Shown: positions 516-13,730 of the stretch, in pieces
Numbering within the stretch: position 1 is the first letter of the stretch
Layout: each line of letters begins with the position of its first letter
From: a virus
Taxonomy: Duplodnaviria; Heunggongvirae; Uroviricota; Caudoviricetes
Length of the DNA: 14,678 nt
Reading direction: 5' to 3' (one strand)
Virus record (IMG/VR): IMGVR_UViG_3300020059_000001
Location: 1-14,678 of that record
Notes under the pieces: generated by a model
The model's database searches: none
Seen by the model: the letters and a program-made list of their open reading frames with translations, nothing else
Told to the model about the DNA's origin: nothing
Position numbers and translations under genes: made by a program

Positions 516-943
516 TGCTGGTAGTGGATCACAGGTAGCTGTGGATGTCATGTCGTGGTGTGCACATGGTGCCACTTGGGACATGGGTGTGTCCTGGTAT
601 GTCCGGGTATCTACCCCTACCACTGTGTACCTCCGACGGGTACGCTTAGGGCAGTTCCACCGCACGACAGCACATGATCCACACAACTCCAGAGGGGACA
701 CGGACTCCATCGATGGGGCACCTACCCGCAGCACCTGAGGCAACCGCCCCTCGTGCACAGGGTAGGTAACCGGAGAGAGCAGCCGAGGGAAGCACCCGCC
801 ATGATCCACGGGTGGCACCCAAAGCACTACGCTTGACCGCCGTATCGATCATGAGAACCAGCCTAGAGCGCAACCACCCGCGCCGTCCCCACGATCACCA
901 AAAGTAGGTGATCACCCAAGCCACACGGGATGTGTGGCAGACA

Positions 944-1084
944 CCTAGCAAGCGTACCCCCGAGTGTTGAACCGTTGACTTGTCCGGCTCACGACCTGTC
1001 CACCCGAGGGAAGCGCTGCTAGGAGACGACCACCGCAGCTAGAGCAGTACGCCTAACGGGTGTAGTGCTGTGGCCACGGTGGTC
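944..1084 (+). promoter_or_regulatory. Two consecutive leader hairpins (944-1023, 1028-1084) before the first gene
   Basis: Closing stems CCTAGCA/TGCTAGG and GACCACCG/CGGTGGTC, with inner arms AGCAGTACGCC/GGTGTAGTGCT; followed by RBS AGAAAGG and ATG at 1100. Confidence 0.55.
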
Positions 1085-1099
1085 ACGAGAAAGGCAACC

Positions 1100-1231
1100 A
1101 TGACCGAACACATTGACACCACGAGCACCTGTCAGCGTTGCTCCGAAACGATCGAGCACGTTGCCGGCGTCAAAGATCCGTACTGGCGCCACTCCGGTGC
1201 CACGTCGCATCCCGCGCAGCCTACCCGGTAG
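1100..1231 (+). CDS. Small hypothetical protein (43 aa, CxxC and WRH motifs); not in the ORF track
   Basis: Manual translation MTEHIDTTSTCQRCSETIEHVAGVKDPYWRHSGATSHPAQPTR; RBS GAAAGG with accATG; the stop lies in the left arm of the next hairpin. Confidence 0.7.
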   Translation: MTEHIDTTSTCQRCSETIEHVAGVKDPYWRHSGATSHPAQPTR

Positions 1232-1292
1232 CACCCCTGGTCACATGATCGGCCCTTACGGGGGTCGGTCATGTAGCCACGGTGGCTACCGG
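1225..1292 (+). promoter_or_regulatory. Long intergenic hairpin (~30 bp stem, TACG loop)
   Basis: CCGGTAGC..ACATGATCGGCCCT-TACG-GGGGTCGGTCATGT..GCTACCGG with three G-U pairs in the upper stem; RBS follows immediately. Confidence 0.75.
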
Positions 1293-1303
1293 AGAGGACA
1301 ACC

Positions 1304-1522
1304 ATGATCCGCCAGCGTGTCCGGCACATGCTCATGACCGCGCTCATCCTGATCGGTGCTGTCAGCGTGGTGTACGTGGTAACGCACACCACGATCGACA
1401 CCTACTCCGGTGCCAACGGGCAACGGGGAGTTGTCATCGGATGGCAGGGACCGGGGCCGGTTCAGTGTTTCGGCGCTGAGTACGGCAGTCACCCCGGACC
1501 ATTCATGAACGTTGACTGCTGA
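1304..1522 (+). CDS. Small membrane/secreted protein (72 aa)
   Basis: RBS GAGAGGA; basic N-terminus then hydrophobic LMTALILIGAVSVVYVV. Confidence 0.75.
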   Translation: MIRQRVRHMLMTALILIGAVSVVYVVTHTTIDTYSGANGQRGVVIGWQGPGPVQCFGAEYGSHPGPFMNVDC

Positions 1523-1527
1523 CCCAC

Positions 1528-1579
1528 CCGTTGCGTTATCGAGCACCCGTCTCGCACGGGTGTTCGGCTACCCCAACGG
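1528..1579 (+). promoter_or_regulatory. Intergenic hairpin, CCGTTG...CAACGG family
   Basis: Basal stem CCGTTG/CAACGG, internal loop, upper stem TCGAGCACCCGT/ACGGGTGTTCGG with 2 G-U. Confidence 0.75.
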
Positions 1580-1590
1580 AGAGGCAAGCA

Positions 1591-1794
1591 ATGGACCCGA
1601 ACGAAACCCTACGCACCATGCGCGAAGCAATCGCACGGTACGACAACGCAATCAAGCTAGTCGACGCGGACGACGCAGCGAGTGATGTACTTGACGCAGC
1701 ACGAGCGCTTGACGAGTGGTTGTCACACGGAGGTTTCCTACCGAAAGCCTGGAAAGACAGTCTGTCTCGACCGGGCGAAAGTTTCCGACCCTAA
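1591..1794 (+). CDS. Conserved actinophage-type small helical protein (MDPN...LDEWLSxGGFLPxAW)
   Basis: Start trimmed from 1531 to ATG 1591 after RBS GAGAGG; the motif is recalled from actinophage hypothetical proteins (not searched). Confidence 0.8.
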   Translation: MDPNETLRTMREAIARYDNAIKLVDADDAASDVLDAARALDEWLSHGGFLPKAWKDSLSRPGESFRP

Positions 1795-1852
1795 CCGTTG
1801 CGTCAACCCGAGCGATCACCCCGTGGGGTGGTCGCTCGTATTGTCCCAACGG
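1795..1852 (+). promoter_or_regulatory. Intergenic hairpin, CCGTTG...CAACGG family
   Basis: Basal CCGTTG/CAACGG; upper stem CGAGCGATCACCC/GGGTGGTCGCTCG with 1 G-U; followed by RBS AAGGA. Confidence 0.75.
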
Positions 1853-1865
1853 AAGGACTCAACCC

Positions 1866-2168
1866 ATGCACGGTGCAACCGACCACATCACACGTTTCGA
1901 TGTGATCGAAACACTCACCGATCGTGTGATGAACTGGTACGGATTCACGTACGCATCGGACTACCGGATGCGACCGTACGCCATGCTCGCCGCTATCCAA
2001 CTACACGAGATGGGCGTGTCCCCGGACACGTTGACCACCGAACAAATCAAGACAGCAGACAAGGAAACCGGCGGCACCATGCTCGCCATGTGGAACACGC
2101 TGGCAGGCACCAACACCGACGTTCCGGGTCCGGAAATCAAGCCCGACGGTACCGACCATGAGAGCTAG
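1866..2168 (+). CDS. Hypothetical protein (100 aa)
   Basis: In frame with track ORF 1716..2168; ATG 1866 follows the hairpin and RBS AAGGA. Confidence 0.7.
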   Translation: MHGATDHITRFDVIETLTDRVMNWYGFTYASDYRMRPYAMLAAIQLHEMGVSPDTLTTEQIKTADKETGGTMLAMWNTLAGTNTDVPGPEIKPDGTDHES

Positions 2169-2340
2169 CCGACGGATCCGACGCGCTCTCGCGATAGCTG
2201 AGGCATTCGAGAGCGGCGCATCGGACTACCGGACCGATGCGCGTGCCGCGTACCGGCATCATCGGCGGTACCGGAAGTGGTATCACCTAGGCCAGCACTA
2301 CCAGCGTGCGCAACTCAGCCCACACACCCGCATCGGCTGA
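2158..2340 (+). CDS. Small basic hypothetical protein (60 aa)
   Basis: Overlaps the upstream stop by 11 nt; ends exactly at the next hairpin. Confidence 0.6.
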   Translation: MRASRRIRRALAIAEAFESGASDYRTDARAAYRHHRRYRKWYHLGQHYQRAQLSPHTRIG

Positions 2341-2459
2341 ACCGTTCGCATGGCTACCCGCATCACGTGATCTCGCTCCTCTTACCCTTGTCGTCCGCCG
2401 ATGGGCGGTCAACCCGTAAGAGCGAGGCACCGGGGTACGGGTAGCTGTGCAAGTGGTTC
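2339..2459 (+). ncRNA. ~120-nt long-stem structured element (processing site or small RNA candidate)
   Basis: Basal stem GAACCGTTCGCATGGCTACCCG / CGGGTAGCTGTGCAAGTGGTTC with 4 G-U pairs; inner stems CTCTTAC/GTAAGAG and TTG/CAA. Confidence 0.5.
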
Positions 2460-2534
2460 GGACCCTTTCGACGTATCCCATGGGTGCACGGGATCATCCC
2501 GCGCACCGATGCCTACGCACGAAAGGAAACGACC

Positions 2535-2675
2535 ATGGTTTTTCAGGCCATCCTCAGCAGTACCGGGCGGACCGTGGAAGTTCGCGCGGACTCTGCTCAC
2601 GCGTTCCGCTACCAGCTAGAACAGCGCGGTATCAAGGTTGCCGATGTTCGGCATTGCGTACAGAAGAAAGGGTGA
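2535..2675 (+). CDS. Small hypothetical protein (46 aa)
   Basis: Strong RBS GAAAGGAA before ATG 2535, in frame with track ORF 2484..2675; small hairpin at 2483-2507 upstream. Confidence 0.7.
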   Translation: MVFQAILSSTGRTVEVRADSAHAFRYQLEQRGIKVADVRHCVQKKG

Positions 2676-2681
2676 CATCAA

Positions 2682-2768
2682 GTGTTGCTCACCATTGCAG
2701 GGTTGCTGCTCATGCTTCCCCTGGCCGTCAAGATCACAAAGGCTGCGGTGTCCAAGATTCACCGCTGA
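2682..2768 (+). CDS. Single-pass membrane peptide (28 aa); not in the ORF track
   Basis: GTG start after AGAAAGGG; MLLTIAGLLLMLPLAVKITKAAVSKIHR, hydrophobic then basic. Confidence 0.55.
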   Translation: MLLTIAGLLLMLPLAVKITKAAVSKIHR

Positions 2769-2774
2769 CGCTTG

Positions 2775-2826
2775 CCTACACCACACGGCTAGCCCGTGTG
2801 GTCAGGGGAGGTATCAGCCACCCTCC
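2775..2826 (+). promoter_or_regulatory. Hairpin ACCACACGG/CCGTGTGGT followed by a UCAGCC-loop hairpin
   Basis: Second hairpin GGAGG-TATCAGCCAC-CCTCC at 2807-2826. Confidence 0.65.
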
Positions 2827-2843
2827 GGAAAGCGGAACACATC

Positions 2844-3053
2844 ATGCCGTTTCAAGAGCAAGTGTGGAACCTGTACCGGGAGTACATCGATGATGAGTGG
2901 TATTCCGGCTATGCCGGAACACTGGTCGATGTCACCGGGCACACGCCAACCGAATCGGAACGCATCGTTGCGTTTCTCACGTGGGCTGCAATAGTCCACC
3001 GGGTTGGGATCACGTTCGATGACATCGACGCGGTTCTGTACGGCCCTGAATAA
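2844..3053 (+). CDS. Small acidic hypothetical protein (69 aa)
   Basis: ATG 2844 after GGAAAGCGGA, in frame with track ORF 2796..3053. Confidence 0.7.
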   Translation: MPFQEQVWNLYREYIDDEWYSGYAGTLVDVTGHTPTESERIVAFLTWAAIVHRVGITFDDIDAVLYGPE

Positions 3054-3056
3054 GCG

Positions 3057-3140
3057 GAGTGATCATCGATCATAAGGGTCGATGATCGCTCGGCCTATTC
3101 AGCCTAAGGCCAGGAAGCGTGAGGCATTTCAGCCATGCCT
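3057..3140 (+). promoter_or_regulatory. Hairpin plus two UCAGCC-loop hairpins, the second sequestering the start codon
   Basis: GAGTGATCATCGA/TCGATGATCGCTC (3057-3091); GGCCT-ATTCAGCCTA-AGGCC (3092-3111); AGGCAT-TTCAGCC-ATGCCT (3122-3140). Confidence 0.75.
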
Positions 3141-4238
3141 AACAACGACATCGGCAGTCCAACGTCACTCGCAATGGTCACATGTGACCGATGCGGAAAC
3201 ACAGCGGACTACCCCGGCACCTACCCCGATTACATCACCCACCAGCCCGACCGGTCCGGCGCATTCTGCGCCAACTGTTGCATCGCGTGCGAAGAGTGCG
3301 GTGTAACCGCAACTAGTCACAACTCGTACCCGCACTACATCGAATACCGCGTCGGCCCCGGTGGGGACTATTGCGACGAGTGCGTCACCTACTGCGAAAA
3401 TTGCAGTGAGTACTACACGGGTGACGAGTGCCCCGACGTGTCCGACCACAGCTACGACGATGACGACGGTTCGTACCGCGACGGTAACGGACTCATCAAC
3501 AGCTACTCGTACAAGCCGTATCCCGAATTCCACGGGGTCGGTCCCGCGTTTCTCGGCGCGGAAATCGAAATCTCCGCACCGGGGCACGGATTCAATCAGG
3601 CTGCGCGGATCGCTGCGGACGGCCTTGGGTCCCTCGGGTACCTGAAAGAGGACTCGTCTATATCGCTCGGGTTCGAAATGGTCACGCACCCAATGACCTA
3701 CGCCTACGCGATGGACAACTTCCCGTGGCCGATGCTGCGAGAGCTACACGACCTAGGGTGCCGGGCAACGGAAGAGACCGGTATCCACGTGCACGTGTCG
3801 CGGGCCGGGTTCGCTAGCCCCTGTCACGTGTACCGGTGGATGAAATTTGTCTACCGCAACGCGCGGGAAGTGCAGGCTATCGCGCGGCGCCGGTCAAGAG
3901 ACTGGGCACCGTTCGATGCAAGTACCCGGCAACAGCAAAAGCACTACGCGAAAAACGATCGTGACCCGTACGGGGGCAGTGTCTACTGCCCGCGTTACTC
4001 AGCGATCAATTCGCAAAACGCGGAAACATTCGAGGTACGCGTCTTTGCGTCGTCGCTGAACGAACATGAAATCAAGGCAGCGCTAGCGCTTGTTGCTGCC
4101 ACCGTCGAGTACACGGCGCATCTGTCCGCCCATGACATCCTCCGCAACGACGGGTGGACATGGTCCGCGTTCATGCAATGGCTACCCAACAAGTACGCCC
4201 CGCTTCGCAGTGAGGCGGCCCGGCTATGTGTCTCCTAA
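3135..4238 (+). CDS. Putative amidoligase (COOH-NH2 ligase, Amidoligase_2-like) with N-terminal CxxC zinc-finger repeats
   Basis: Motifs GAEIE, KEDSSI..GFEMVTHP, TGIHVHVS, RYSAIN, TFEVRVF; several CxxC pairs in the first ~100 aa. Confidence 0.9.
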   Translation: MPNNDIGSPTSLAMVTCDRCGNTADYPGTYPDYITHQPDRSGAFCANCCIACEECGVTATSHNSYPHYIEYRVGPGGDYCDECVTYCENCSEYYTGDECPDVSDHSYDDDDGSYRDGNGLINSYSYKPYPEFHGVGPAFLGAEIEISAPGHGFNQAARIAADGLGSLGYLKEDSSISLGFEMVTHPMTYAYAMDNFPWPMLRELHDLGCRATEETGIHVHVSRAGFASPCHVYRWMKFVYRNAREVQAIARRRSRDWAPFDASTRQQQKHYAKNDRDPYGGSVYCPRYSAINSQNAETFEVRVFASSLNEHEIKAALALVAATVEYTAHLSAHDILRNDGWTWSAFMQWLPNKYAPLRSEAARLCVS

Positions 4239-5059
4239 CTTACCTACCGGCTGGAGTCCAGCCGGACACGGAAGCACTACGCAACGGGACACTGGTCAAT
4301 GAGGACGGCTTCGGATACGCCATCGTTGCCGACGGTCGGATCATCATCGGTAAGAGTCTCGACCCCGACAAAACTATCGACCGGTTCGCCGAGCTACGGA
4401 AAGCGAACCCCGACGGGCCGGCACTATTCCACTCCCGGATGTCAACACACGGGATCGTCGACAAAGACAACTGCCACCCGTTCATCGTGGGCGGCGACCG
4501 GCGGACCGTCTTCGGTCACAACGGAATCTTCCCGGCGAAAGCGCAACCGGCTAAGAACGACATTCGGTCCGATACCCGCATCGTGGCGGAAGACCTGATT
4601 CCGCGCGGTATGTGGGGTGGGATGCAACAATCCAAGAGCCGACGTCGGCTAGAACGATGGATGGGACCGTTCAACAAAGCGGTTATCCTGACCGTCAACC
4701 GCCGGTACCGGGAGCAAGCGTACATCCTAAATGAGGATGCCGGTATTTGGGATAAGGGCTCATGGTATAGCAACAGTGGTTTCAAGCCACCGTGGAAGCC
4801 ATCCAAGGATGATGGCTACTGGACTAAGGACCCGGAAACCGGGACGTGGGGCTTTACAAGTAGAAATTGGAATTACGGTGGCCATGACTGTCCGGTCTGT
4901 TTTACCGACGACGCGGTCGACCCGGTAACCAATATCTGCGGATTCTGTCACTGTTGCATTGACTGCTGTGAAACGGACGTCGACTGCCAGTGCTACATAC
5001 CCGCAGCACTTGACCGACTACCCGACCACATCCTGTCACAACTCGACCGCGACCGTTGA
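4226..5059 (+). CDS. Class II (Ntn) glutamine amidotransferase with a C-terminal Cys cluster
   Basis: N-terminal Met-Cys nucleophile, NEDGFG, FHSRMSTHG, NCHPF, HNG, RSDT; overlaps the amidoligase by 13 nt. Confidence 0.92.
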   Translation: MCLLTYLPAGVQPDTEALRNGTLVNEDGFGYAIVADGRIIIGKSLDPDKTIDRFAELRKANPDGPALFHSRMSTHGIVDKDNCHPFIVGGDRRTVFGHNGIFPAKAQPAKNDIRSDTRIVAEDLIPRGMWGGMQQSKSRRRLERWMGPFNKAVILTVNRRYREQAYILNEDAGIWDKGSWYSNSGFKPPWKPSKDDGYWTKDPETGTWGFTSRNWNYGGHDCPVCFTDDAVDPVTNICGFCHCCIDCCETDVDCQCYIPAALDRLPDHILSQLDRDR

Positions 5060-5106
5060 CCTAAGGAGGGTGCCCGTCACGCACGGGCACCCGATTAGCC
5101 CAACGG
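5053..5106 (+). promoter_or_regulatory. Intergenic hairpin, CCGTTG...CAACGG family
   Basis: Basal CCGTTG/CAACGG; upper stem GGGTGCCCGT-CACGC-ACGGGCACCC, sharing CCCGT-CWCGC-ACGGG with 1528-1579; TTAGCC at 5095. Confidence 0.75.
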
Positions 5107-5123
5107 GAAAGGGGAAACAAACC

Positions 5124-5324
5124 GTGAGCAGTAACACCGATCGCCAGGATCAATTGCGAATGGCTGCACTACGGGAAAGGGTCGCCATTGTCGCTGAGAT
5201 TCGGGCAATGGCTGATGAGGTACGGAACACATGGGACCCGAACCTAGGCCGCGCAATAGGCACGATTATTGACGACGTCGCCGACAAGATCAACACCTAC
5301 CGGTACCTCCATGAGGCCCGGTAA
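5124..5324 (+). CDS. Small helical hypothetical protein (66 aa)
   Basis: GTG 5124 after RBS GAAAGGGGA, in frame with track ORF 4959..5324. Confidence 0.7.
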   Translation: MSSNTDRQDQLRMAALRERVAIVAEIRAMADEVRNTWDPNLGRAIGTIIDDVADKINTYRYLHEAR

Positions 5325-5365
5325 CTACTCAGCCTAGGAAAGCATGAGGGCACTCAGCCATGCCT
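5298..5365 (+). promoter_or_regulatory. Hairpin plus two UCAGCC-loop hairpins (homologous to 3092-3140)
   Basis: TACCGG..CCTC-CAT-GAGG.CCGGTA (5298-5323); CTA-CTCAGCC-TAG; GGCA-CTCAGCCA-TGCC. Confidence 0.65.
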
Positions 5366-5608
5366 AACAACGCCAACAACACTCGTCCGCTACACGTCGT
5401 GGCGGCCGACGTCCGCCGACACTGGCCGAAAGTCAACTACGCGGCCGTCCCGTACCTCAACGCAATGGCGAAACTCAACAAGCTCACCGACATGTACGGC
5501 GCCGACCATGCCGACGACATCGTGCGGTACTTCCTAAGTAACGCAACCTCATGGCGCGGCGACGACGCACGGAGGGTCAAGGCCGAACTTAAGGCCATGC
5601 TCCGATGA
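5360..5608 (+). CDS. Conserved phage hypothetical protein (82 aa; AVPYLxAM...YFLxNAxxWRG..ARRVKAELK)
   Basis: Motif pattern recalled from a widespread phage family of unknown function; ATGA overlap with the next gene. Confidence 0.85.
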   Translation: MPNNANNTRPLHVVAADVRRHWPKVNYAAVPYLNAMAKLNKLTDMYGADHADDIVRYFLSNATSWRGDDARRVKAELKAMLR

Positions 5609-6205
5609 CCATCCGCCTACCGCAGGTAGCCAACATCAAACGCGTGTTCCGTAGCGCCACGTCCAACCAGCTAACCACTGGTCGGGCGTGGTATGCCGAC
5701 GCGCACGCGGGCCGCCGCGAATCTCGACCCCGACCACCCTAACCGGGCCGCCGGAATCATCGCTGCCCTAAGCCCCCAAACGTCGTGGCCACGCAACCTT
5801 GGGCTAGCAGCCCGGATGTACGCCGACGGGCGTCTGAACGGCGGTGCCCTCAGCCGGTCCGTCACACGGGCAACCGCCATCTACCACGGCGCCGAACCCC
5901 TCAACGTCCTACAAGGGCCGAAAACACGGGCGTTCTACCGACTCATTGCCGACCCCGACGACCCCGACACCGTGTGCATCGACCGACACGCCATAGACGT
6001 AGCTGTCGGGGAACGGCTATCCGTACTCGACCGGGAATCCCGCTACCCGCTCAACCGGCATAACTGGTATGAGCGGTTCGCCACCGTCTACCGGGCCGCC
6101 GCTCGCCAACTAGCCGTGACCCCGTCCGTCGTGCAGGCAACCACATGGACCGTACAAACCGACCGGTGGCGGGACATCCGCATCGGCGGACTAACCCACA
6201 TCTGA
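5605..6205 (+). pseudogene. DUF7178-like phage protein split by a +1 frameshift near 5709-5711 (real lesion or sequencing error)
   Basis: Frame from 5605 gives NIKRVFRSAT...GRAWYADAH then stops at 5742; the +1 frame continues with AAGIIAALSPQ, GPKTRAFY, IDRHA, VQATTW. The family assignment is from recall. Confidence 0.7.
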
Positions 6206-6218
6206 CCCGACGACTGAA

Positions 6219-6277
6219 CGCGCGGCGTGGCCAACAGCTACCAGCTGTTGACCGCGCGGTCTATTCAGCCACAGACC
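6219..6277 (+). promoter_or_regulatory. Hairpin plus UCAGCC-loop hairpin
   Basis: CGCGCGG..CAACAGCT-ACC-AGCTGTTG..CCGCGCG (6219-6258); GGTCT-ATTCAGCCAC-AGACC (6258-6277). Confidence 0.7.
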
Positions 6278-6295
6278 AGAGAGAAGGAAAGAACC

Positions 6296-7282
6296 ATGCC
6301 CGCAAATGTGGAATCAATGTTTTCCGTCCGGGCGATGCCCTGGCACCGGGAAGGTGTTGTGTTGGGTGAGTACCCGGGTAGTTGGGCCGAAGCGCGGAAG
6401 CTCGCCGGCCTGGAATGGGATCCGATCAGCGAACCCGTGTACGAGCTGCAAGGGATCACTGAGGACGGGCAGCCTACGTACGCCCCTAGTGAGGGGTGGA
6501 AGCGGATTGTCAGGTCGGATACCGGCGCGACGTTGTGGATCACCCAAGACACATACAAGATCATCGACCATCAGGCGATGGGCGAAATCGTGGAAGCGGT
6601 ACTCGCGCAGCCCAACGTCAAATGGGAAACCGCCGGCGTGCTGAACGGTGGCCGGGACGTGTGGGCGCTGTCCCGCCTCGACGAACCCGTCGAACTGCCC
6701 GGCGACGCCGGCACCCTCACCGTGCCGTACCTCGCGTTCACCACCCGGCACGGCCAGCCCGGCGCAGCCGTGCTCAGGGCAACCGCCGTCCGGATCGTAT
6801 GCGCCAACACGTTCCGGGCAGCCGAACTTGAAGGAGAACGGACCGGGAACACATTCGCGTTCAAGCACCGGGGTAACTGGCGGGACCGGCTCAGTGAGGC
6901 CCGTGAGGCCGTCACCGGCGCCCGCCGGGAAATGGCCGACTACGTAGGTTTGATGACCAACCTACTCGACATCAAGATCACGCCCAGGCAGCGGGAACTG
7001 TTCATCACCGCATTCATCCCGTCGCCGCCCGACGGCCTGGTCACCGACCGGGTAGTCCGCAACGTCGAAACCGCGCGGACCGCGCTGCGGGCAATCCTAG
7101 CCAGCGACACCACCGCCAACGTCGCCGACACCGGCTACGGGTTGGTACAAGGCGCCGGGGAATACCTCGACCACGTCCGCCGGTCGCGTAGCTGGGAAAC
7201 GAAATTGGGTCGCACGCTCATTAGACCCGAACCGTTGAAAGCAAAGGCTTTGAGTCTCGTCCGCGAGGTTGCGAACGCCTGA
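6296..7282 (+). CDS. DUF932 family phage/plasmid-like protein (TIGR03299 type)
   Basis: Characteristic MPANVESMFSVRxMPWHREG start, GLEWD, WETAGVLNGGRxVW, VRIVCANT, KHRGNW; RBS GAAGGAAAG before ATG 6296. Confidence 0.92.
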   Translation: MPANVESMFSVRAMPWHREGVVLGEYPGSWAEARKLAGLEWDPISEPVYELQGITEDGQPTYAPSEGWKRIVRSDTGATLWITQDTYKIIDHQAMGEIVEAVLAQPNVKWETAGVLNGGRDVWALSRLDEPVELPGDAGTLTVPYLAFTTRHGQPGAAVLRATAVRIVCANTFRAAELEGERTGNTFAFKHRGNWRDRLSEAREAVTGARREMADYVGLMTNLLDIKITPRQRELFITAFIPSPPDGLVTDRVVRNVETARTALRAILASDTTANVADTGYGLVQGAGEYLDHVRRSRSWETKLGRTLIRPEPLKAKALSLVREVANA

Positions 7283-7289
7283 GTAGACG

Positions 7290-7345
7290 GGATGGTCGGC
7301 AACCCCCGCAGGTTGCCGGCCGTCCGGCTTACTCAGCCGTAAGTC
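7290..7345 (+). promoter_or_regulatory. Hairpin plus UCAGCC-loop hairpin
   Basis: GGATGGTCGGCAACC-CCCGCA-GGTTGCCGGCCGTCC with 2 G-U; GGCTTAC-TCAGCC-GTAAGTC. Confidence 0.75.
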
Positions 7346-7363
7346 AGGAACTGGAGATTGATG

Positions 7364-7684
7364 ATGACCGGGCCACCGACACGGAACAACGTCAAGCTCC
7401 CGTTGACGCTGAAACGCCGGAAACGAGAGATCGAGGGTAGTGAGTACGGGGCGTTCGTACGGCGCGTACTGAGGGCTTACAGCCGCCGCGTCGCGGCCGG
7501 GGACGTCGAAACCCTCCGGGACCTCATAGCGCTGTCCAGTGAGATCGACCAGGCCGTGACCGACGCTGTCGCCGGCCTACGCACCCGAGGCTACTCGTGG
7601 AGTGAGATCGGCGACCGGCTCGGCGTGTCTAAGCAGGCAGCCCAGCAACGCTGGGGTAACCCGACCACCATCCGCAGGGCGTGA
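7364..7684 (+). CDS. HTH DNA-binding protein (sigma70 region 4-like; common in actinomycete mobile elements)
   Basis: C-terminal GYSWSEIGDRLGVSKQAAQQRWG; RRVAAGDVETL motif. The start could be 7358, 7361 or 7364; 7364 has the best spacing to GGAG. Confidence 0.88.
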   Translation: MTGPPTRNNVKLPLTLKRRKREIEGSEYGAFVRRVLRAYSRRVAAGDVETLRDLIALSSEIDQAVTDAVAGLRTRGYSWSEIGDRLGVSKQAAQQRWGNPTTIRRA

Positions 7685-7690
7685 CCGCGT

Positions 7691-7735
7691 GCCGGGCCGT
7701 GCCTTGCCCTGGCATGCCGAACCGTCCCATGCCGC
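7691..7735 (+). repeat. Degenerate 5-bp tandem array (NCCNN x9)
   Basis: gccgg gccgt gcctt gccct ggcat gccga accgt cccat gccgc. Confidence 0.8.
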
Positions 7736-7821
7736 TGCCCTGCACCTCCGGGGAGGCGCATTGACAACAACCGTACCCCCGACCCACCCGGACCACCTAC
7801 TATGTACCCACAGGAGGAACA

Positions 7822-8025
7822 GTGACCGTCATCCATCTCAAGTACAAACCCAACATATCCGCGTTCGTGGGCTGGACCGCGCCCGCCGGCGCGGCGATCC
7901 CGATCGCAGGCGACTGGGTCGAAGAGGCCGGGAGAACCTACAACGTCATGGGTCGGATCATCCGCGACCAGGGCCGCGAGGTCACCCTCATCGTCCGACC
8001 ATCCGACGTCAACGTGAGTTATTAG
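7822..8025 (+). CDS. Small beta-rich hypothetical protein (67 aa)
   Basis: GTG start after a perfect AGGAGG; high GC3. Confidence 0.8.
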   Translation: MTVIHLKYKPNISAFVGWTAPAGAAIPIAGDWVEEAGRTYNVMGRIIRDQGREVTLIVRPSDVNVSY

Positions 8026-8027
8026 CC

Positions 8028-8099
8028 ATGACCACCGTCTGCGTCATTGCAGCGCTCGTCGCTGCGGTAGCCGCCCTCAACATCATCACAATCCGGTAG
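8028..8099 (+). CDS. Hydrophobic micropeptide (23 aa)
   Basis: MTTVCVIAALVAAVAALNIITIR; starts 2 nt after the upstream stop, preceded by TTAGCC. Confidence 0.5.
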   Translation: MTTVCVIAALVAAVAALNIITIR

Positions 8100-8134
8100 G
8101 AAAACCGGCCCCAACAAATCGAACGAGGAAACAA

Positions 8135-8395
8135 ATGAGCAGCAACGAAATCCTGGAGTTTTACCTCGCCCCGGACTACGACGCACGTATCCACCGGGTC
8201 TACGTCAACGTCCCAGACGACTGGGACGACATGACCAAAGACCAACGCGAAAAGTTCGCCGACGAACAGGCGATCCAGTACCGCGACGAACACGTCGAAG
8301 CTGGCGGCATCATCCACACCTCGCTCGAAACGGCCCAGAGCGCTAACCGTGACTCGTGGGGCGACCAGCCCGACGAAGCCGAAGACTGGTTCTAA
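8135..8395 (+). CDS. Acidic hypothetical protein (86 aa)
   Basis: RBS GAGGAA; strong GC3 bias; D/E-rich. Confidence 0.85.
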   Translation: MSSNEILEFYLAPDYDARIHRVYVNVPDDWDDMTKDQREKFADEQAIQYRDEHVEAGGIIHTSLETAQSANRDSWGDQPDEAEDWF

Positions 8396-8466
8396 AACCA
8401 GGGGAACACGTCCCTCACGACACTTCACCTTCCCTTCCACGGAAAACGAAAGGAGGCGAAACGCTA

Positions 8467-9207
8467 ATGACTGAACAGGCCCGCTACGTCAGCCTGCACT
8501 ACTTCGCTGAGGCGTTGGGGCTACCCGTCGAGACGATGCGTAGCTACAACAAGCGGGCTAACCGGAACCGGCGCCGAGGCCGACCCTTGACCACGGACCT
8601 GCCGGTAGCTGACGCGCCGCCCGATGCTCAAACAGCAGGCCGGCCGCGGTGGCTACGGGAAACCGCCGACGCCTACATCACCCTCCGACTGGCAACGAAA
8701 CGAGGTAGGCACGTGGCAGCCGAACCGCGTCAACGCGACGAACACGGCCGCTTTCAACCCACCGCCCCCGACGAGCCGCTTCGTACGTCCGGTGGCGTCG
8801 AATTGACCAACGAGCTAGTCGAACAGCTCGCCGACGAGGCCGAAGCCGGCTACGACCCGGACAAGCTCGTGCCCCGCCCGACGGCTCAACGGGGGTCATC
8901 GGACGGACCGGTCATGGTCCGGCTATCCGCAGCCGAACGGGACCAGGCCGCCGAAGCACTGAGCAGCGTCATACCGACCGGCCTCGGGCTCCGACATCTG
9001 ATTACCGATGGGCCGCGCGGCTGGTCAGCGGCGATGGCACCCGACAGGGCCGACGAGATCGCCGAAGCGCTGACCGAGGCGTGGTCGAAGGAAGGCCACC
9101 GAACCTTCGAGCTGGCGCAACGGTTCGCCGAAGATCAGGAACCGGCCCGGCGCACGAAACGCGGCGGGTGGGCAGCCGGCGTCCGACCGGGAGACAGAAC
9201 GGAGTAA
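8467..9207 (+). CDS. Multi-domain putative DNA-binding protein (N-terminal excisionase/MerR-like HTH plus central CopG/RHH-associated segment)
   Basis: RBS AAAGGAGG before ATG 8467; FAEALGLPVETMRSY...DLP..D...GRPRW; LTNELVEQLADEAEAGYD...VMVRLS. Confidence 0.7.
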   Translation: MTEQARYVSLHYFAEALGLPVETMRSYNKRANRNRRRGRPLTTDLPVADAPPDAQTAGRPRWLRETADAYITLRLATKRGRHVAAEPRQRDEHGRFQPTAPDEPLRTSGGVELTNELVEQLADEAEAGYDPDKLVPRPTAQRGSSDGPVMVRLSAAERDQAAEALSSVIPTGLGLRHLITDGPRGWSAAMAPDRADEIAEALTEAWSKEGHRTFELAQRFAEDQEPARRTKRGGWAAGVRPGDRTE

Positions 9208-9262
9208 ACCCGAATGACCGAATCCACGCCGAGGACGACCCATTACCCGATTACGCGTAGGG

Positions 9263-9484
9263 TTAGGTAGACCGACCCCTCGCGACAGAAGAGGCCGCCG
9301 TCTCGGATCCCTCCGGGACGGCGGCCTTTTTGTCGTTGTTGGCTAGTTTCGCGGCGTGGCGGTGGCGTAGACCTGCTGCGCGGCGTTGCTGACGGTCGAT
9401 GCGGTCGGCGCGTAGGCGTTCGCGGCGGGCTTTCCAGGCGTTGTGCTGGTCAACCCAATGATCGGTGACCTCCGGCATGTCCAT
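9263..9484 (-). CDS. Possible small basic protein (73 aa), perhaps leaderless
   Basis: High GC3 from ATG 9484; TACCAT 6 nt upstream of the ATG on the minus strand; no RBS; the 3' part runs through the terminator hairpin. Confidence 0.4.
   Translation of the reverse strand: MDMPEVTDHWVDQHNAWKARRERLRADRIDRQQRRAAGLRHRHAAKLANNDKKAAVPEGSETAASSVARGRST
9292..9331 (+). terminator. Intrinsic terminator
   Basis: Stem AGGCCGCCGTCTCGGA/TCCGGGACGGCGGCCT followed by a T tract. Confidence 0.85.
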
Positions 9485-9539
9485 GCATCTATGGTAGCCG
9501 GCTTCGACTCCCGGCATCTGAAATTTTATGGACCTGTGG

Positions 9540-9568
9540 ATGACACAGCATCCCGTGAGATGTATGGT
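9540..9568 (+). promoter_or_regulatory. SigA/HrdB-type promoter candidate
   Basis: ATGACA - 17 nt - TATGGT, downstream of the terminator and ~36 nt upstream of ATG 9605. Confidence 0.55.
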
Positions 9569-9604
9569 TTGCCATGTATCCCATCCCATCCCAGGGGGTT
9601 TCCC

Positions 9605-9808
9605 ATGGCCATCCTTGTCGTGCTCACACTCGTCGTCCTGTTCACCGGATCACTACTCGGCAACCTGCTCCAACACTGGGCCATCCGCGACGCCAACGGC
9701 CACAACCGATGCCTACGCCGCTGGATCAACGACAACAGGAGCGTCCCCGACAACCTCATCGACGTCATCGAACGCGGCGGATCGATCCGGCTCACCCGCA
9801 ACCGGTAA
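9605..9808 (+). CDS. Small membrane protein (67 aa)
   Basis: RBS AGGGGG; N-terminal hydrophobic AILVVLTLVVLFTGSLLG. Confidence 0.75.
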   Translation: MAILVVLTLVVLFTGSLLGNLLQHWAIRDANGHNRCLRRWINDNRSVPDNLIDVIERGGSIRLTRNR

Positions 9809-9822
9809 AGGGGAAAGCAGCC

Positions 9823-10050
9823 ATGACCAACATGCTCATCGGCAGCCCGGACGCCCTCGCCGAGATCACCAAAATTATCGACCTCACCGCCGCCGACCTC
9901 GCCCAGGACTACCTCAGCCCCGAACAACGCCGCCAGCAGTTCGCCTACCTCACCATCGCCATCCAGATCCGGCGTAGCTACCCGCCGACCTACACCCCCG
10001 AACAGGAAGCCCATGCACTCGTCGCCGCCGCCCAAGGCCAAATCTCATGA
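9823..10050 (+). CDS. Hypothetical protein (75 aa)
   Basis: RBS AAGGGGA; in frame with track ORF 9574..10050; ATGA overlap with the next gene. Confidence 0.8.
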   Translation: MTNMLIGSPDALAEITKIIDLTAADLAQDYLSPEQRRQQFAYLTIAIQIRRSYPPTYTPEQEAHALVAAAQGQIS

Positions 10051-10445
10051 CCGGCGACGACTACACCCGACCCGCCGTCACCGTGCAACTAACAACCAGG
10101 GAACGGATGTTCGCGCTACGGGTACTCCGCGCAGCCGGTGTGCCATGGCGAACCCGGCGACTCATCGCCGCCGACACTCTATGGGCATTCGAAGCCAGCC
10201 ACCTCGCCGACGCCCTCGACCAGGCCAGCACCAAAACCCGGCCACTGTCACACACCCGCCGGCAAACCCGCCGACTCGCCGCCCACTACCGGGCCGCCGC
10301 CGGCACCGCGAAACGGGCACCTATCAACCCCGCCGAATGGCCCGAAGCCCCCCGCACCCGTTCGGTGCCAATCGAAACGCTCATCGAACAAACAGCTACC
10401 GCCCACTGGGCGGCCATCCCACCTAGCCCGGAGGTAACACCATGA
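10047..10445 (+). CDS. Hypothetical protein (132 aa)
   Basis: ATGA overlaps at both ends. Confidence 0.75.
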   Translation: MTGDDYTRPAVTVQLTTRERMFALRVLRAAGVPWRTRRLIAADTLWAFEASHLADALDQASTKTRPLSHTRRQTRRLAAHYRAAAGTAKRAPINPAEWPEAPRTRSVPIETLIEQTATAHWAAIPPSPEVTP

Positions 10446-11623
10446 GGCAGCTGAAGATCGCCGTCATCGGCGGCTCACTGGTCGGCCCGACCGCGGAACT
10501 GACCTTCCGCCGGCACGGCTTCACCGACGTCACCACGTACGAAGCGTCCCGCACCCCGCACCCGCAGTCCGGTGGTGTGATGGGCCTCCGTCAGCAAGGC
10601 ATCGAAATCCTCAAGGACGCCGGTGTCGACGTCGCCTCGACCGTCGCGCTCGACTCGCGGGACACCATCTCCTGGGACATGGACGGTGGTGTCGAACCCA
10701 GGCAGCGGGGACGATCTACCCTGCCGGGGCAGGTTACATCCTGGGACAAACTTCACCACGCGCTCGGGCAGCTCGTCGATATCCAACTCGGTCATCGGCT
10801 CGTCGCCCTCGACCACGACGGCGAACGGGCACAGCTCGCCTTCACGAAAGGCCACACCGACGAAGCCGACCTGGTCGTCTTCGCCGACGGTCGCAAATCC
10901 ACCGGCCGGGCTTTACTCGACCCGACCCGCCACCTGCATTACAGCGGATACTGCATGTGGCGAGGCCTGATCGAACTACCCACGAACTCGGCGATCGAAG
11001 GGTTCAGCCGGTTCTACGACACGCCACGCGGGATACTGTTCTCCATCACCGCGCCAATCAAAAACGATGGCCGGTCATACTGGGAACTGTCCACCAACAT
11101 GTCGGAAGCGGCGTTCACCCGGATCGTCGGGAAGCCACCCACCGAACACGCATTCCTGCTTTCCGGACAGATCACACCATTGATCAGGCGAACCATCGAC
11201 GCGCTCGCCACCGCATACCTACCGGCACAGTTCCGCGACGTGGTCCACGACACCGACCAGATCATGGGGATTCCCATCATCGACTTACCACTGGCCAAGC
11301 AGACCGCTTGGCCACTGGGCAACGCTCACGCGGCTCTCGTCGGCGACGCCGCCCAAACCGTTCGGCTACAAACCGGCTGGGGACTCAACGCCGGCATCGG
11401 CCAAGTCCACTGCCTCGCCGGCCGACTCGCCAACGGAATGAACCTCGACGCAGCCGTCGCAGACTGGTCAACCGCCTCGATGGCCGCCATCGGCCCCTGG
11501 GTCGAACTAGGCCGGCGAAGGGCCGCCGCGACCAACCTCGGTGTCTACGAGCCCGTCAGACCCGGATACACCGCCGTCCCGTCCAATGATATTTGGTCAC
11601 CACCCCAATGGATCTTGAGCTAA
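10442..11623 (+). CDS. FAD-dependent monooxygenase (class A aromatic hydroxylase, 2,6-dihydroxypyridine hydroxylase-like)
   Basis: Rossmann motif KIAVIGGSLVG, DLVVFADG, YSGYxxWRG, LVGDAA; RBS GGAGG. Confidence 0.88.
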   Translation: MRQLKIAVIGGSLVGPTAELTFRRHGFTDVTTYEASRTPHPQSGGVMGLRQQGIEILKDAGVDVASTVALDSRDTISWDMDGGVEPRQRGRSTLPGQVTSWDKLHHALGQLVDIQLGHRLVALDHDGERAQLAFTKGHTDEADLVVFADGRKSTGRALLDPTRHLHYSGYCMWRGLIELPTNSAIEGFSRFYDTPRGILFSITAPIKNDGRSYWELSTNMSEAAFTRIVGKPPTEHAFLLSGQITPLIRRTIDALATAYLPAQFRDVVHDTDQIMGIPIIDLPLAKQTAWPLGNAHAALVGDAAQTVRLQTGWGLNAGIGQVHCLAGRLANGMNLDAAVADWSTASMAAIGPWVELGRRRAAATNLGVYEPVRPGYTAVPSNDIWSPPQWILS

Positions 11624-11629
11624 AGCAAG

Positions 11630-11694
11630 GAAAGGTCAGGTCGAGAAAAGGGCAACCTTCTCTGAAAACGCCCTCCCCCTCGACCTGACCTTTC
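11630..11694. terminator. 16-bp perfect inverted repeat after the monooxygenase; terminator or processing hairpin
   Basis: GAAAGGTCAGGTCGAG (11630-11645) / CTCGACCTGACCTTTC (11679-11694), with inner AGGGC/GCCCT. Confidence 0.65.
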
Positions 11695-11710
11695 GTGCCC
11701 TGCCGCTGCT

Positions 11711-11770
11711 GCCACGCCGCGCCCAGCCGGACCGGGCCGGGCCGAGCCCAGCCACGCCTCGCCTCACCGC
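11711..11770 (+). repeat. Degenerate 5-bp tandem array (RCCNN x12)
   Basis: gccac gccgc gccca gccgg accgg gccgg gccga gccca gccac gcctc gcctc accgc; CCGCTGCTGCC at both ends (11703, 11767). Confidence 0.85.
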
Positions 11771-11853
11771 TGCTGCCGCACCACTCACCGCATCCGAAGA
11801 TCCGGCTCCATCGACAATTATAGCTTGCCGAAATTCACGAACAGGAGATCATC

Positions 11854-12390
11854 ATGCACGATGCTGTCAACTACCAGACTGCCCGCGTCAGCGAAACTGC
11901 CCCAGTCAAGCCCACACCTACGCGGTGGCCGGTAACCACCGGGGAGCTACGAGGGCGACTCCAACCCGTTACTTTTATGCGTCTTCTGGAACCGGTCGAA
12001 AACCCGGACGGGCCTACCCTCACCGCCGACAACATCGTCAGCGTGCAGCATTGGGGACCGGGTGTCGTCGTCATCAACGCAATGCAGTCAGGCTACCAAC
12101 CGCTCATGATCGACGATAGAACCCTTCACGCCAAATGGATACACCTGAACGCCGAAGTAACAACAGCCGAGCTGCGGGCCAAACTGCAACCAATCGTCTT
12201 CGGCCGGCTCGTCGAGGACGTCGCCGACAACAGCGACCCCACCATCACCCTGCCTGCACGTACCCCGGTAGCGCTCGTGTTCTGGGGCGGTGGCATGACC
12301 GCCGTCACCGACGTACTCACCGGCCAACACGTCGTCGCCCGAACCAACACGGTTCACGTCGACTGGCACCACGGCCTAGTCATCGACTGA
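11854..12390 (+). CDS. Hypothetical protein with an internal tandem domain duplication (178 aa)
   Basis: RBS AGGAG; VTTGELRGRLQP..F.RL.E.V repeated as VTTAELRAKLQP..F.RL.E.V. Confidence 0.85.
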   Translation: MHDAVNYQTARVSETAPVKPTPTRWPVTTGELRGRLQPVTFMRLLEPVENPDGPTLTADNIVSVQHWGPGVVVINAMQSGYQPLMIDDRTLHAKWIHLNAEVTTAELRAKLQPIVFGRLVEDVADNSDPTITLPARTPVALVFWGGGMTAVTDVLTGQHVVARTNTVHVDWHHGLVID

Positions 12391-12397
12391 GCCGGCG

Positions 12398-12466
12398 GGG
12401 TGGTCGGCAGTGTTCCACTTCCCCGGAACACTGCTGGCCGCCCGGTCCGCTCAGGACCACTTAGCC
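12398..12466 (+). promoter_or_regulatory. Intergenic hairpin homologous to 7290-7325, then a small hairpin and TTAGCC
   Basis: GGTCGGCAGTGTTCC/GGAACACTGCTGGCC with 2 G-U; shares TGGTCGGCA with 7290-7325. Confidence 0.65.
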
Positions 12467-12489
12467 ATCCCCGAGGAGATAACCGACTC

Positions 12490-12855: not shown

Positions 12856-12860
12856 AGATC

Positions 12861-13531: not shown

Positions 13532-13719
13532 ACAACATACCGAGGTGGAACCTCATACCGAGATGGATCGGCATCATCGTCTCGGTAGTCGCAATCGCGA
13601 TCACAGTGAACATGGCAACCGAACGGATCGAGAACCCCGACGGCATGGCCGCGGTCGCGATAACCGGCATCATCGCCACCATCATCATCACCGTAATCGC
13701 CATTATCACCGACGACTAA
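13528..13719 (+). CDS. Small 2-TM membrane protein (63 aa)
   Basis: RBS GGAGGA; two hydrophobic stretches. Confidence 0.8.
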   Translation: MNNIPRWNLIPRWIGIIVSVVAIAITVNMATERIENPDGMAAVAITGIIATIIITVIAIITDD

Positions 13720-13730
13720 CCTCGGGGTAG

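Follow-up and report, generated by a model that had tools for sequence, protein, structure and literature searches.

Why a single hexamer, TCAGCC, should recur in the gene leaders of an uncultured actinobacterial phage is the question raised by the 14,678-nt stretch of DNA analyzed here (the window). A sequence-only reading had described seven leader copies, each in the loop of a short stem, and had taken a fixed loop on variable stems as a signature of protein recognition. The analysis described below suggests that the primary role of TCAGCC would not be that of a protein-recognition loop. The hairpin spacers in which it is found belong to a known type of phage gene-junction signal, within which they form a new family.

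Occurrence of TCAGCC

TCAGCC is present 17 times in the window compared to 7.1 ± 2.5 times in dinucleotide shuffles, with none of 200 shuffles reaching 17. It is also the commonest hexamer in the non-coding DNA between positions 900 and 8200, with 8 copies in approximately 1.5 kb against 0.53 in shuffles, and 8 copies of any hexamer occur in only 7 of 1000 shuffles. All seven leader copies (2814, 3099, 3129, 5329, 5354, 6265 and 7333) are found on the plus strand as described, and hairpin-associated leader copies are restricted to 2814-7333 across the genome. The longer form of the motif is TAYTCAGCC, and the start codon lies at a nearly constant distance of 28-36 nt from TCAGCC. However, these are not seven independent copies, as 3099/3129 and 5329/5354 belong to a single duplicated leader. 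When this leader is counted once, 6 copies remain, a number matched by some hexamer in 177 of 1000 shuffles (18%), and the count alone is then not family-wise significant. To that extent the recurrence of a hexamer in GC-rich spacers could be due to chance, but this is contradicted by the structural context of the copies (p = 1e-4 to 6e-7), by covariance-model homology and by covariation, which render it extremely improbable. The TTAGCC variants that had been grouped with the loop motif have other contexts: the one at 5095 forms a helix strand of a sister element, the one at 8022 is a stop/start overlap and the one at 12461 lies outside any loop.

Long hairpins between early genes

At 2814, 3099, 6265 and 7333, TCAGCC provides the 3' strand of a basal helix closing an intercistronic hairpin of 55-75 nt, and its partner is a CTGA box at or adjoining the upstream stop codon. 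The full element, a single long interrupted hairpin of approximately 21-28 bp, takes up the space between two early genes of the plus strand. Conserved are the basal helix, CUGA(R..) paired with (..Y)UCAG on or beside the stop codon of the upstream gene, and the mid-stem, which carries an invariant U.G pair, while the apex differs from copy to copy. The 3' end of the element lies some 20-30 nt before the next start codon, immediately 5' of a purine-rich ribosome-binding region. Elements D and E below align with an element of a distant metagenomic phage (locus L025, 11558), and covariance model R1, trained on these three only, finds elements B and C as well, completing a homologous set of five.

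2764-2826, plus strand: element A, a diverged member; long interrupted hairpin 2764-2818 with basal helix GCTGA 2764-2768 / TCAGC 2814-2818 (P 0.44-0.99, depending on context)
3039-3114, plus strand: element B; R1 match of 41.7 bits (E = 4e-7), outside the training set; basal helix CTGAATA 3046-3052 / TATTCAG 3096-3102, overlapping the stop codon TAA 3051-3053 (P = 0.99)
6207-6279, plus strand: element C; R1 match of 45.7 bits (E = 5e-8), outside the training set; basal helix CTGAA 6214-6218 / TTCAG 6264-6268 (P = 0.71-0.9)
7272-7348, plus strand: element D, homologous to 12380-12460 and L025:11558-11640; basal helix CTGAGTAG 7279-7286 / TTACTCAG 7329-7336, including the stop codon TGA 7280-7282 (P = 0.93-1.0)
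12380-12460, plus strand: element E, beyond the range covered by the sequence-only reading; alignments A1 and A2, R1 match of 69.4 bits; basal helix CTGAGC 12387-12392 / GCTCAG 12449-12454, including the stop codon TGA 12388-12390

Upstream of element C the gene stop is at 6203-6205, and a second in-frame TGA (6215-6217) falls within the basal helix. Element A is not recovered by R1; its hairpin folds at -33.6 kcal/mol (z = -4.5). A possible 28-codon ORF ends at TGA 2766-2768, in the base of this element.

Across the five plus-strand members, 112 of 120 cells are paired and 11 of 24 pairs have changed on both sides, in a family whose known members number five or six from two phage lineages, with paralogues sharing ancestry. 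Folding z-scores of the homologous elements range from -3.8 to -7.9 (-7.1, -3.8, -6.5 and -7.9 for B, C, D and E, respectively). At every locus the covariance model scores the plus strand far above the minus strand, on which the invariant U.G pair reads C.A. The four TCAGCC copies can pair with the stop region, coaxially with the large hairpin, over 5, 7, 5 and 8 bp, with per-site p-values of 0.11, 0.008, 0.07 and 0.012; Fisher combination over five tested sites, including the non-pairing copy at 5329 (p = 0.49), yields about 1e-3. Since the genes around the homologous elements are unrelated to each other and a leader module has been duplicated, the element appears to be portable. No close relatives were found, and the motif is missing from 159 related loci; an Rfam covariance-model search, which included the hammerhead and other small ribozymes, gave no match at the gathering score apart from tRNA. 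By reading of the sequence, the elements also differ from the hammerhead in having CUGA followed by GUA or AUA instead of NGA and in lacking GAAA after the upper stem.

Taken together, these data make it probable that TCAGCC is a helix strand of a homologous RNA hairpin family. Because TCAG pairs with CTGA at the base of the homologous long hairpin, conservation of the loop does not call for a protein, and the step from a fixed loop to protein recognition is not supported. Pairing does not account for the CC, which is kept in most copies yet is unpaired in the long-hairpin state.

Small hairpins, leader duplicate and alternative states

The flanking arms of the seven leader copies can form stems of 5, 5, 6, 3, 5, 5 and 7 bp, such that six of the seven have a stem of at least 5 bp able to hold TCAGCC in the loop. 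Locally, 6.8% of intergenic positions have such a stem around a hexamer, giving p = 6e-7 (p = 1e-4 for a conservative 4 of 5). The enrichment over background proposed earlier is thereby borne out: TCAGCC is non-random, strand-specific and linked to RNA structure. Looping in every copy is borne out only in part, as the stem at 5329 (CTA/TAG) has only 3 bp and, at 2814, none of the states tested is predicted to contain the GGAGG/CCTCC stem. In the list below, P refers to the free RNA and then to RNA whose 5' side is kept unpaired as far as 14 nt beyond the first stop-codon base.

2807-2811 / 2822-2826, plus strand: proposed small stem of element A, GGAGG/CCTCC; probability approximately 0
3092-3096 / 3107-3111, plus strand: alternative small hairpin of element B, GGCCT/AGGCC; loop holds TCAGCC 3099-3104; P 0.00, then 0.98
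6258-6262 / 6273-6277, plus strand: small hairpin of element C, GGTCT/AGACC; loop holds TCAGCC 6265-6270; P 0.1, then 0.96
7326-7332 / 7339-7345, plus strand: small hairpin of element D, GGCTTAC/GTAAGTC; TCAGCC 7333-7338 is the entire loop; P 0.00, then 0.65
12444-12448 / 12454-12458, plus strand: small hairpin of element E, GGTCC/GGACC; loop GCTCA, the TCAG of this element not being followed by CC

The arms agree with the variable stems described before, and the paralogous small hairpins (GGCCT/AGGCC, GGTCT/AGACC, GGTCC/GGACC and GGCTTAC/GTAAGTC) covary at three positions with zero broken pairs, as read from the alignment. The loop itself is not fixed, with homologues showing GCTCA (12449) or TACTCAAC (L025) instead, and the displayed loops range from 5 to 10 nt.

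The long and small hairpins are unequal alternatives: at 2814, 3099, 6265 and 7333 the basal helix has an ensemble probability of 0.44-0.99 (pairing of TCAG with CTGA being at 0.44 for 2814 and at 0.7-1.0 for the other three) compared to 0-0.13 for the small hairpin. Holding the 5' side open brings the small hairpin to P = 0.65-0.99 in five of six elements. The exceptions to this behavior are element A, which is predicted not to form its small hairpin, and element E, which is predicted to be mostly in the small-hairpin state even when free. The Shine-Dalgarno/start region is predicted to be nearly equally accessible in both states, and a translational effect of the switch is therefore not evident. 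That the two-state behavior is functional is a tentative proposal to which we give somewhat less than an even chance.

The remaining leader copies belong to two related modules:

3122-3140, plus strand: start-codon hairpin of the amidoligase gene (AGGCAT, loop TTCAGCC, ATGCCT)
5316-5365, plus strand: shortened leader duplicate, a copy of 3086-3140 without the large hairpin

In the first, TCAGCC (3129-3134) directly precedes the ATG at 3135 and a GAGG Shine-Dalgarno overlaps the 5' arm; the hairpin (-7.9 kcal/mol, z = -2.6) has a pair probability of about 0.5-0.56 in context and is predicted to occlude both the Shine-Dalgarno and the start codon. The duplicate has 83% identity to 3086-3155, codons 1-5 (MPNN) included, with TCAGCC at 5329-5334 and 5354-5359 and the ATG at 5360. 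As had been noted, two TCAGCC hairpins (3122-3140 and 5348-5365) bury the start codon of the next gene. The copies at 3129 and 5354 have no basal partner and display TCAGCC in a loop. Between the 5329 and 5354 copies, GCATGAG is able to pair with either TCAGCC; in context folding, 5328-5333 pairs with 5342-5348 (P about 0.8) and 5354-5362 with 5206-5215 within the upstream gene (P about 0.67), and the local hairpin of the duplicate is of ordinary stability (z = -0.4).

These modules bear on the proposal that a phage or host RNA-binding protein reads UCAGCC in the loops of small hairpins, thereby regulating translation or read-through in the amidoligase/glutamine amidotransferase/DUF932 block. 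Stems that covary around a loop fixed at six of seven sites, the CC conserved without a pairing role, the 7-nt loop of a hairpin that sequesters a Shine-Dalgarno and AUG, and a small-hairpin module at 5316-5365 without a large hairpin are all consistent with such a protein. Nevertheless, the loop conformer is rare in full context at the four distal sites, loop length varies and homologues display other loops. Moreover, a candidate protein, like any other trans factor for UCAGCC, was not found, and the motif is missing from the related loci. Since the sites are 3' of the large hairpins, they cannot prevent formation of those hairpins; this position and the presence of one site per gene do not fit the antitermination once suggested, whether of the processive boxB type or of the RAT type. 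Overall, this proposal is decidedly unlikely, although a loop-reading factor is conceivable, above all for the start-codon hairpin 3122-3140.

Known junction signals and a proposed explanation

Phage λ boxB has a GNRA-like pentaloop and is accompanied by boxA, the MS2 operator has an ANYA loop with a bulged A, and CsrA recognizes GGA. The TCAGCC hairpins resemble these in being short and displaying a seemingly fixed loop, and those at 3122-3140 and 5348-5365 include the start codon as the MS2 operator does. However, the features just listed for boxB, the MS2 operator and CsrA are all absent from them, homologues display other loops and no partner protein was identified. A λ-type nut site, in which a single promoter-proximal site per operon has boxA upstream of a 5-bp stem with the pentaloop, was rejected: the sites here number at least five, with one at each gene, and their loops of 5-10 nt are not GNRA-like and lie 3' of the hairpins that antitermination would need to overcome.

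The early region of T7 contains RNase III signals (R0.3 to R1.3), which are irregular hairpins of about two turns with internal loops, located between genes of a single transcript; after cleavage, the upstream mRNA keeps a 3' hairpin and the downstream mRNA starts with a new 5' end. The elements resemble them in having an interrupted helix of 21-28 bp with internal loops between early genes (at least approximately 20 bp defining the T7 type), but differ in that their cleavage is hypothetical, the stop codon lies inside the basal helix, the host is actinobacterial, and the CUGA/UCAG boxes and mid-stem U.G pair are conserved beyond the needs of RNase III. The strand-specific, interrupted helices agree with a static processing or stability signal, in which the long hairpins are host RNase III substrates or exonuclease barriers and the small ones lack a function of their own. 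The enzyme would have to come from the host, as the phage has neither an RNase III gene nor one for a dsRBD protein. This view leaves the covariation and enrichment of the small hairpins unexplained, as well as the conservation of the basal and mid-stem boxes, and we consider it unlikely, though still worth some weight.

In T4-type phages, promoter-early stem-loops (PeSLs) are mobile regulatory cassettes whose defining feature is a sigma-70 consensus promoter preceded by an AT-rich region, their stem-loops being terminators (Arbiol et al. 2010, PMC2839356; Comeau et al. 2014, PMC4122927). Like PeSLs, the elements are repeated composites running from an upstream stop codon through a stable stem-loop to a downstream Shine-Dalgarno and start, are clustered in a variable early region 5' of small genes of unknown function, and occur at non-homologous junctions with duplicated or shuffled modules. 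In contrast to PeSLs, the conserved parts are helix strands and a U.G pair, complemented by an alternative small hairpin. A consensus scan of the plus strand between 900 and 8200 found no sigma-70-like promoter, no -35 box lies 16-18 nt from TAYTCA by sequence reading, and the elements were not classed as PeSLs proper for want of the -35/-10 boxes. Intrinsic (Rho-independent) terminators, GC-rich hairpins with a U-tract directly behind them, were likewise rejected, as the plus strand of this region has no terminator-like site and the hairpins are followed by GGYCY-TAYTCAGCC. A DNA-level, PeSL-like cassette combining a terminator with a phage-specific promoter (TAYTCA as a -10-like box), whose repeats serve mainly recombination and gene shuffling, would fit the stop-to-start layout with its conserved box, the nearly constant distance from TCAGCC to the start codon, and homologous elements at non-homologous junctions with a duplicated leader. 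It is at odds with the lack of a workable -35 spacing and a U-tract, with the absence from TAYTCA of the final T conserved in actinobacterial -10 boxes, and with the RNA-level signs, namely the invariant U.G pair and plus-strand bias, and is accordingly very unlikely.

The start-associated sequence (SAS) of Cluster K phages is a 13-mer, GGGATAGGAGCCC, located 3-8 bp from the start codon, while its extended form (ESAS) has 17-bp inverted-repeat arms with 4-13 bp spacers, for which Pope et al. found little support as an RNA hairpin (2011, PMC3203893; PMC12699233). Both systems involve a short phage-specific motif in one orientation in many actinobacteriophage gene leaders, and ESAS is likewise an inverted repeat with a variable spacer. 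However, the inverted boxes of the elements measure 5-8 nt, flank a covarying hairpin at a separation of 40-55 nt and show compensatory change. The window leaders contain no SAS, GGGATAGGAGCCC at up to 2 mismatches matching twice, both times within genes, and SAS/ESAS was rejected for these reasons.

The explanation that we favor, with confidence evenly balanced, is that TCAGCC forms the 3' terminus of an intercistronic RNA element that is portable, acts in cis, has two states and punctuates and protects early mRNA. At rest the long hairpin would be formed with UCAG paired. Once the 5' strand is removed, whether because a ribosome terminates at the stop codon within it or because an endonuclease cuts the long helix, as happens at the RNase III sites of T7, the freed UCAGCC would be caught in the loop of the small hairpin, whose conserved GGYCY and complement lie directly 5' of the ribosome-binding region. 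We infer transcription through the elements, RNA processing and the switch. The likely purpose would be twofold: a long polycistronic early mRNA would be punctuated and protected, with hardly any bare spacer exposed to nucleases or Rho, and the downstream cistron would receive a defined, structured leader. The copies at 3129, 5329 and 5354 would stem from duplication of the small-hairpin/leader module. A bolder version, which seems improbable, is a ribosome-operated switch: termination at the buried stop would flip the long hairpin to the UCAGCC-displaying one, which a dedicated phage or host factor or the departing ribosome would read, licensing the next cistron in a termination-coupled relay on a portable cassette.

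Unexplained junction signals are abundant in phage early operons, and this case is compact and testable, joining three conserved signatures, namely a stop-codon-containing helix, a wobble pair that does not vary and a small hairpin that is mutually exclusive with the helix. Two-state behavior, if real, would couple the leader structure of a gene to translation termination in, or RNA processing of, the gene before it, and would explain how unrelated small genes are swapped with their expression signals retained; should the element be a stability hairpin and nothing more, it would be an unremarkable example of a class that is common. The lesson for annotation is that a fixed loop on variable stems may be a by-product of a conserved helix strand.

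The window also contains a sister family, here called class II:

1528-1579, plus strand: class II element, with CCGTTG, a variable hairpin, CAACGG and then a purine-rich ribosome-binding site
starting at 972, 1795 and 5053: other copies of the same family

In the 5053 copy, the TTAGCC at 5095 is the helix strand, with CTAA as its partner. The class II architecture is also found in L025, at 3935, 4383 and 11562; the presence of CCGTTGAGTA / TACTCAACGG in the last of these connects the class II and CTGA/TCAG families.

TCAGCC in gene leaders and its probable pairing partner

The hexamer TCAGCC occurs 17 times in the window against 7.1 +/- 2.5 times in shuffled sequence, and in the spacers of positions 900-8200 it is the most frequent hexamer, with 8 copies where 0.5 are expected (a count of 8 was reached by any hexamer in 7 of 1000 shuffles). 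The sequence-only reading had located seven copies in gene leaders, at 2814, 3099, 3129, 5329, 5354, 6265 and 7333, each in the loop of a short stem of variable sequence, and had taken them as candidate sites for an RNA-binding protein. All seven are found at these positions on the plus strand and the enrichment over shuffled spacers is borne out, with the caveat that the pairs 3099/3129 and 5329/5354 represent one duplicated leader of ~50 nt (83% identity, first five codons included) and that the count by itself is not significant family-wise once this leader is collapsed to one. The stems hold for most copies: arms of at least 5 bp flank TCAGCC at six of the seven, compared to 6.8% of the intergenic positions in this region (p = 6e-7; p = 1e-4 with the duplicated leader discounted). 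The motif has a longer form, TAYTCAGCC, situated 28-36 nt ahead of the start codon, or 6 nt for two start-proximal copies. No comparable TCAGCC leader hairpin was found in the rest of the 108-kb genome.

When the whole spacers are folded instead of 20-nt pieces, TCAG is paired with a CTGA box across a large hairpin. The resulting basal helix is found in four intercistronic elements, here called A to D.

Basal helices of elements A to D, with per-site p values
2764-2826, plus strand: element A, GCTGA at 2764 with TCAGC at 2814 (p = 0.11)
3039-3114, plus strand: element B, CTGAATA at 3046 with TATTCAG at 3096 (p = 0.008)
6207-6279, plus strand: element C, CTGAA at 6214 with TTCAG at 6264 (p = 0.07)
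7272-7348, plus strand: element D, CTGAGTAG at 7279 with TTACTCAG at 7329 (p = 0.012)

The upstream stop codon lies inside or touches the CTGA box at 2766, 3051 and 7280, while the box at 6215 holds a second in-frame TGA. The partition function assigns the basal helix a P of 0.71-0.99 at 3099, 6265 and 7333 and a context-dependent 0.44-0.99 at 2814, and the loop-displaying hairpin a P of 0-0.13 at these four sites. Furthermore, the stability of the long hairpins far exceeds that of shuffled sequences (folding z = -3.8 to -7.9). An uncalled 28-codon reading frame with a GTG start (2682-2768), for a hydrophobic mini-protein, has its end precisely within element A's basal helix.

The copies at 3129 and 5354 are part of the duplicated module of small hairpin and leader. 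In its predicted fold, hairpin 3122-3140 (-7.9 kcal/mol, z = -2.6) encloses both the Shine-Dalgarno sequence and the amidoligase start codon AUG; the local hairpin at 5354 is nothing special. The 5329 copy pairs with GCATGAG just downstream (P ~0.8). TCAGCC plus AT at 5354-5362 (TCAGCCAT, with the start codon of gene 5360) is complementary to ATGGCTGA at 5206-5215 in the upstream gene (P ~0.67), and this predicted helix could possibly provide long-range translational coupling.

Homologous elements and two predicted states

Element D can be aligned with a further plus-strand intercistronic hairpin, element E (12380-12460), and with positions 11558-11640 of L025, a locus from a metagenomic phage that is only distantly related (50% identity between its amidoligase and that of the window). 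R1, a covariance model trained on these three, recovers elements C (E = 5e-8) and B (E = 4e-7), and a scan of the genome returned no members beyond these two. In the alignment of the five members on the plus strand, 112 of 120 cells are paired and both sides have changed in 11 of 24 pairs, two of which belong to the basal helix. A single U.G pair never varies in these members; it reads C.A on the opposite strand in every copy, and R1 scores the plus strand far above the minus strand at every locus. As far as sequence comparison goes, the invariant U.G pair and the plus-strand bias are the mark of a structured RNA or, at the least, of sense-strand structure. Homologous copies sit between unrelated genes, which makes the element a portable junction module.

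In 2.1 Mb of sequence surrounding amidoligase genes (80 viral contigs, 79 actinobacterial genomes), R1 detected no member, and the hairpin family therefore seems confined to this phage lineage. The sole borderline match, at locus L183, was rejected as a different hairpin. With its 50-55% identity, the nearest amidoligase is too distant for orthologous leaders to be aligned. In IMG/VR, the 17-mer TCAGCCATGCCTAACAA was found only in unrelated low-GC contigs and the element-core patterns gave nothing; two metagenome matches to these patterns were attributed to chance.

Judged from the same kind of comparison, the small hairpins are real as well. They use the conserved GGYCY of the element as 5' arm and, as 3' arm, a stretch directly ahead of the purine-rich ribosome-binding region. 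The arms (GGCCT/AGGCC, GGTCT/AGACC, GGTCC/GGACC, GGCTTAC/GTAAGTC, and GGCC/GGCC in L025) covary at three positions among homologues, with no broken pair. Small hairpin and basal helix are mutually exclusive. If the 5' side is kept single-stranded as far as 14 nt beyond the stop codon's first base, mimicking a terminating ribosome, the small hairpin is dominant in five of six elements (P = 0.65-0.99). From covariation and thermodynamics we infer a two-state behaviour, in which the change of state would be triggered by a terminating ribosome or by endonucleolytic processing and might serve to protect or punctuate early mRNA, or to hand over to the next cistron. The idea that the switch unmasks the Shine-Dalgarno sequence was dropped, as the predicted accessibility of Shine-Dalgarno and start is the same in both states (0.4-0.6).

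The evidence best supports a family of cis-acting RNA cassettes between cistrons, with TCAGCC as a helix strand. The conservation can be explained without a dedicated factor that reads a TCAGCC loop, since TCAG pairs with CTGA, and the displayed loop is not fixed, being GCTCA at 12449 and TACTCAAC in L025. However, protein recognition retains some ground in the CC, whose conservation no pairing accounts for, and in two TCAGCC copies that are genuine loops.

Relation to described elements

The closest described systems are the promoter-early stem-loop (PeSL) cassettes of T4-type phages (PMC2839356, PMC4122927), the start-associated sequences (SAS/ESAS) of Cluster K mycobacteriophages (PMC3203893) and the T7 RNase III sites. 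The window elements have layout and portability in common with PeSLs, but lack the promoter boxes that PeSLs carry. With T7 RNase III sites they have their predicted form in common. No RNase III or dsRBD gene was found in the phage. The literature searched yielded no report of a stop-codon-bearing basal helix with a conserved alternative hairpin; any novelty would lie in this combination, the kind of element itself not being new.

Rfam gave no family match to the elements. A promoter or terminator reading was dropped as the defining boxes are missing. Also rejected were mimicry of a tRNA anticodon loop or T-loop (the sequence departs from the position 37/58 rules), an integron attC site (GTT...AAC in reversed order) and a hammerhead substrate (core lacking, no Rfam match). 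In the usual actinobacterial 16S rRNA 3' end, going by the universal primer, GGCUGG stands just 5' of the anti-Shine-Dalgarno. All UCAGCC copies would be complementary to this segment with one G.U, but it lies in helix 45 and the idea of such a pairing was dropped. GGAGGTATCAGCC (2807-2819) resembles the reverse complement of this presumed 3' end.

Gene array and other leader motifs

The window, 14.7 kb long, opens a 108-kb IMG/VR phage record with 62% G+C, and identical copies are present in one assembly each from ENA and Logan. By its proteins it falls distantly among phages of Mycobacteriales-type actinobacteria: the best amidoligase match has 50-55% identity, and the capsid protease has matches in Rhodococcus, Mycobacterium and Gordonia phages, all below 50%. 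INPHARED contained no near-identical phage. According to our own gene calls, 1100-14074 holds small genes, nearly all on the plus strand, with the remaining genome mostly in opposite orientation.

Pfam assignments in the array
3135-4238, plus strand: amidoligase
4226-5059: GATase_4, weak match
5605-5742 and 5693-6205: DUF7178, split over overlapping frames
6296-7282: DUF932
7361-7684: small helix-turn-helix protein

The DUF7178 gene consists of two overlapping frames in all three assemblies of the phage and is a single 193-aa gene in L025; a frameshift, a programmed shift or decay of the gene could account for the split. At the contig end, ~1 kb of DNA ahead of the first gene (positions 1-900) is non-coding and has many GTGTG and CCCTGG; another assembly extends it by 705 nt (L032:1-705). 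This region may represent a terminus or an origin.

A second intercistronic family consists of CCGTTG, a variable GC-rich hairpin, CAACGG and then a purine-rich ribosome-binding site.

Members of the second family
Window: 972-1059, 1528-1579, 1795-1852, 5053-5106
Elsewhere: L025:3935, 4383 and 11562; L127:13913

The window shares this family with a phage whose proteins have only ~50% identity and with one Amycolatopsis MAG locus (L127). The basal helix of L025 is CCGTTGAGTA/TACTCAACGG, and therefore the two families are linked. An apparently orthologous junction, after the gene ending ...LY, is of the CCGTTG/CAACGG type in L025 whereas it is of the TCAGCC type in the window.

Paralogous leaders (GCCACGGTGG...AACCATG) precede the genes that start at 1100 and 1304 (1060-1099 and 1265-1303), forming a third duplicated leader type within the array. 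In L029, a 110.5-kb relative, a leader motif of its own recurs, CCGCCACA(G/A)AC, at 721-753, 1498-1586 and 2275-2391. It is located 28-52 nt upstream of start codons, and after it comes GTAGGAGCC, similar to the start-associated sequence of Cluster K. GCCACAGAC is common to L029 and window positions 6267-6275.
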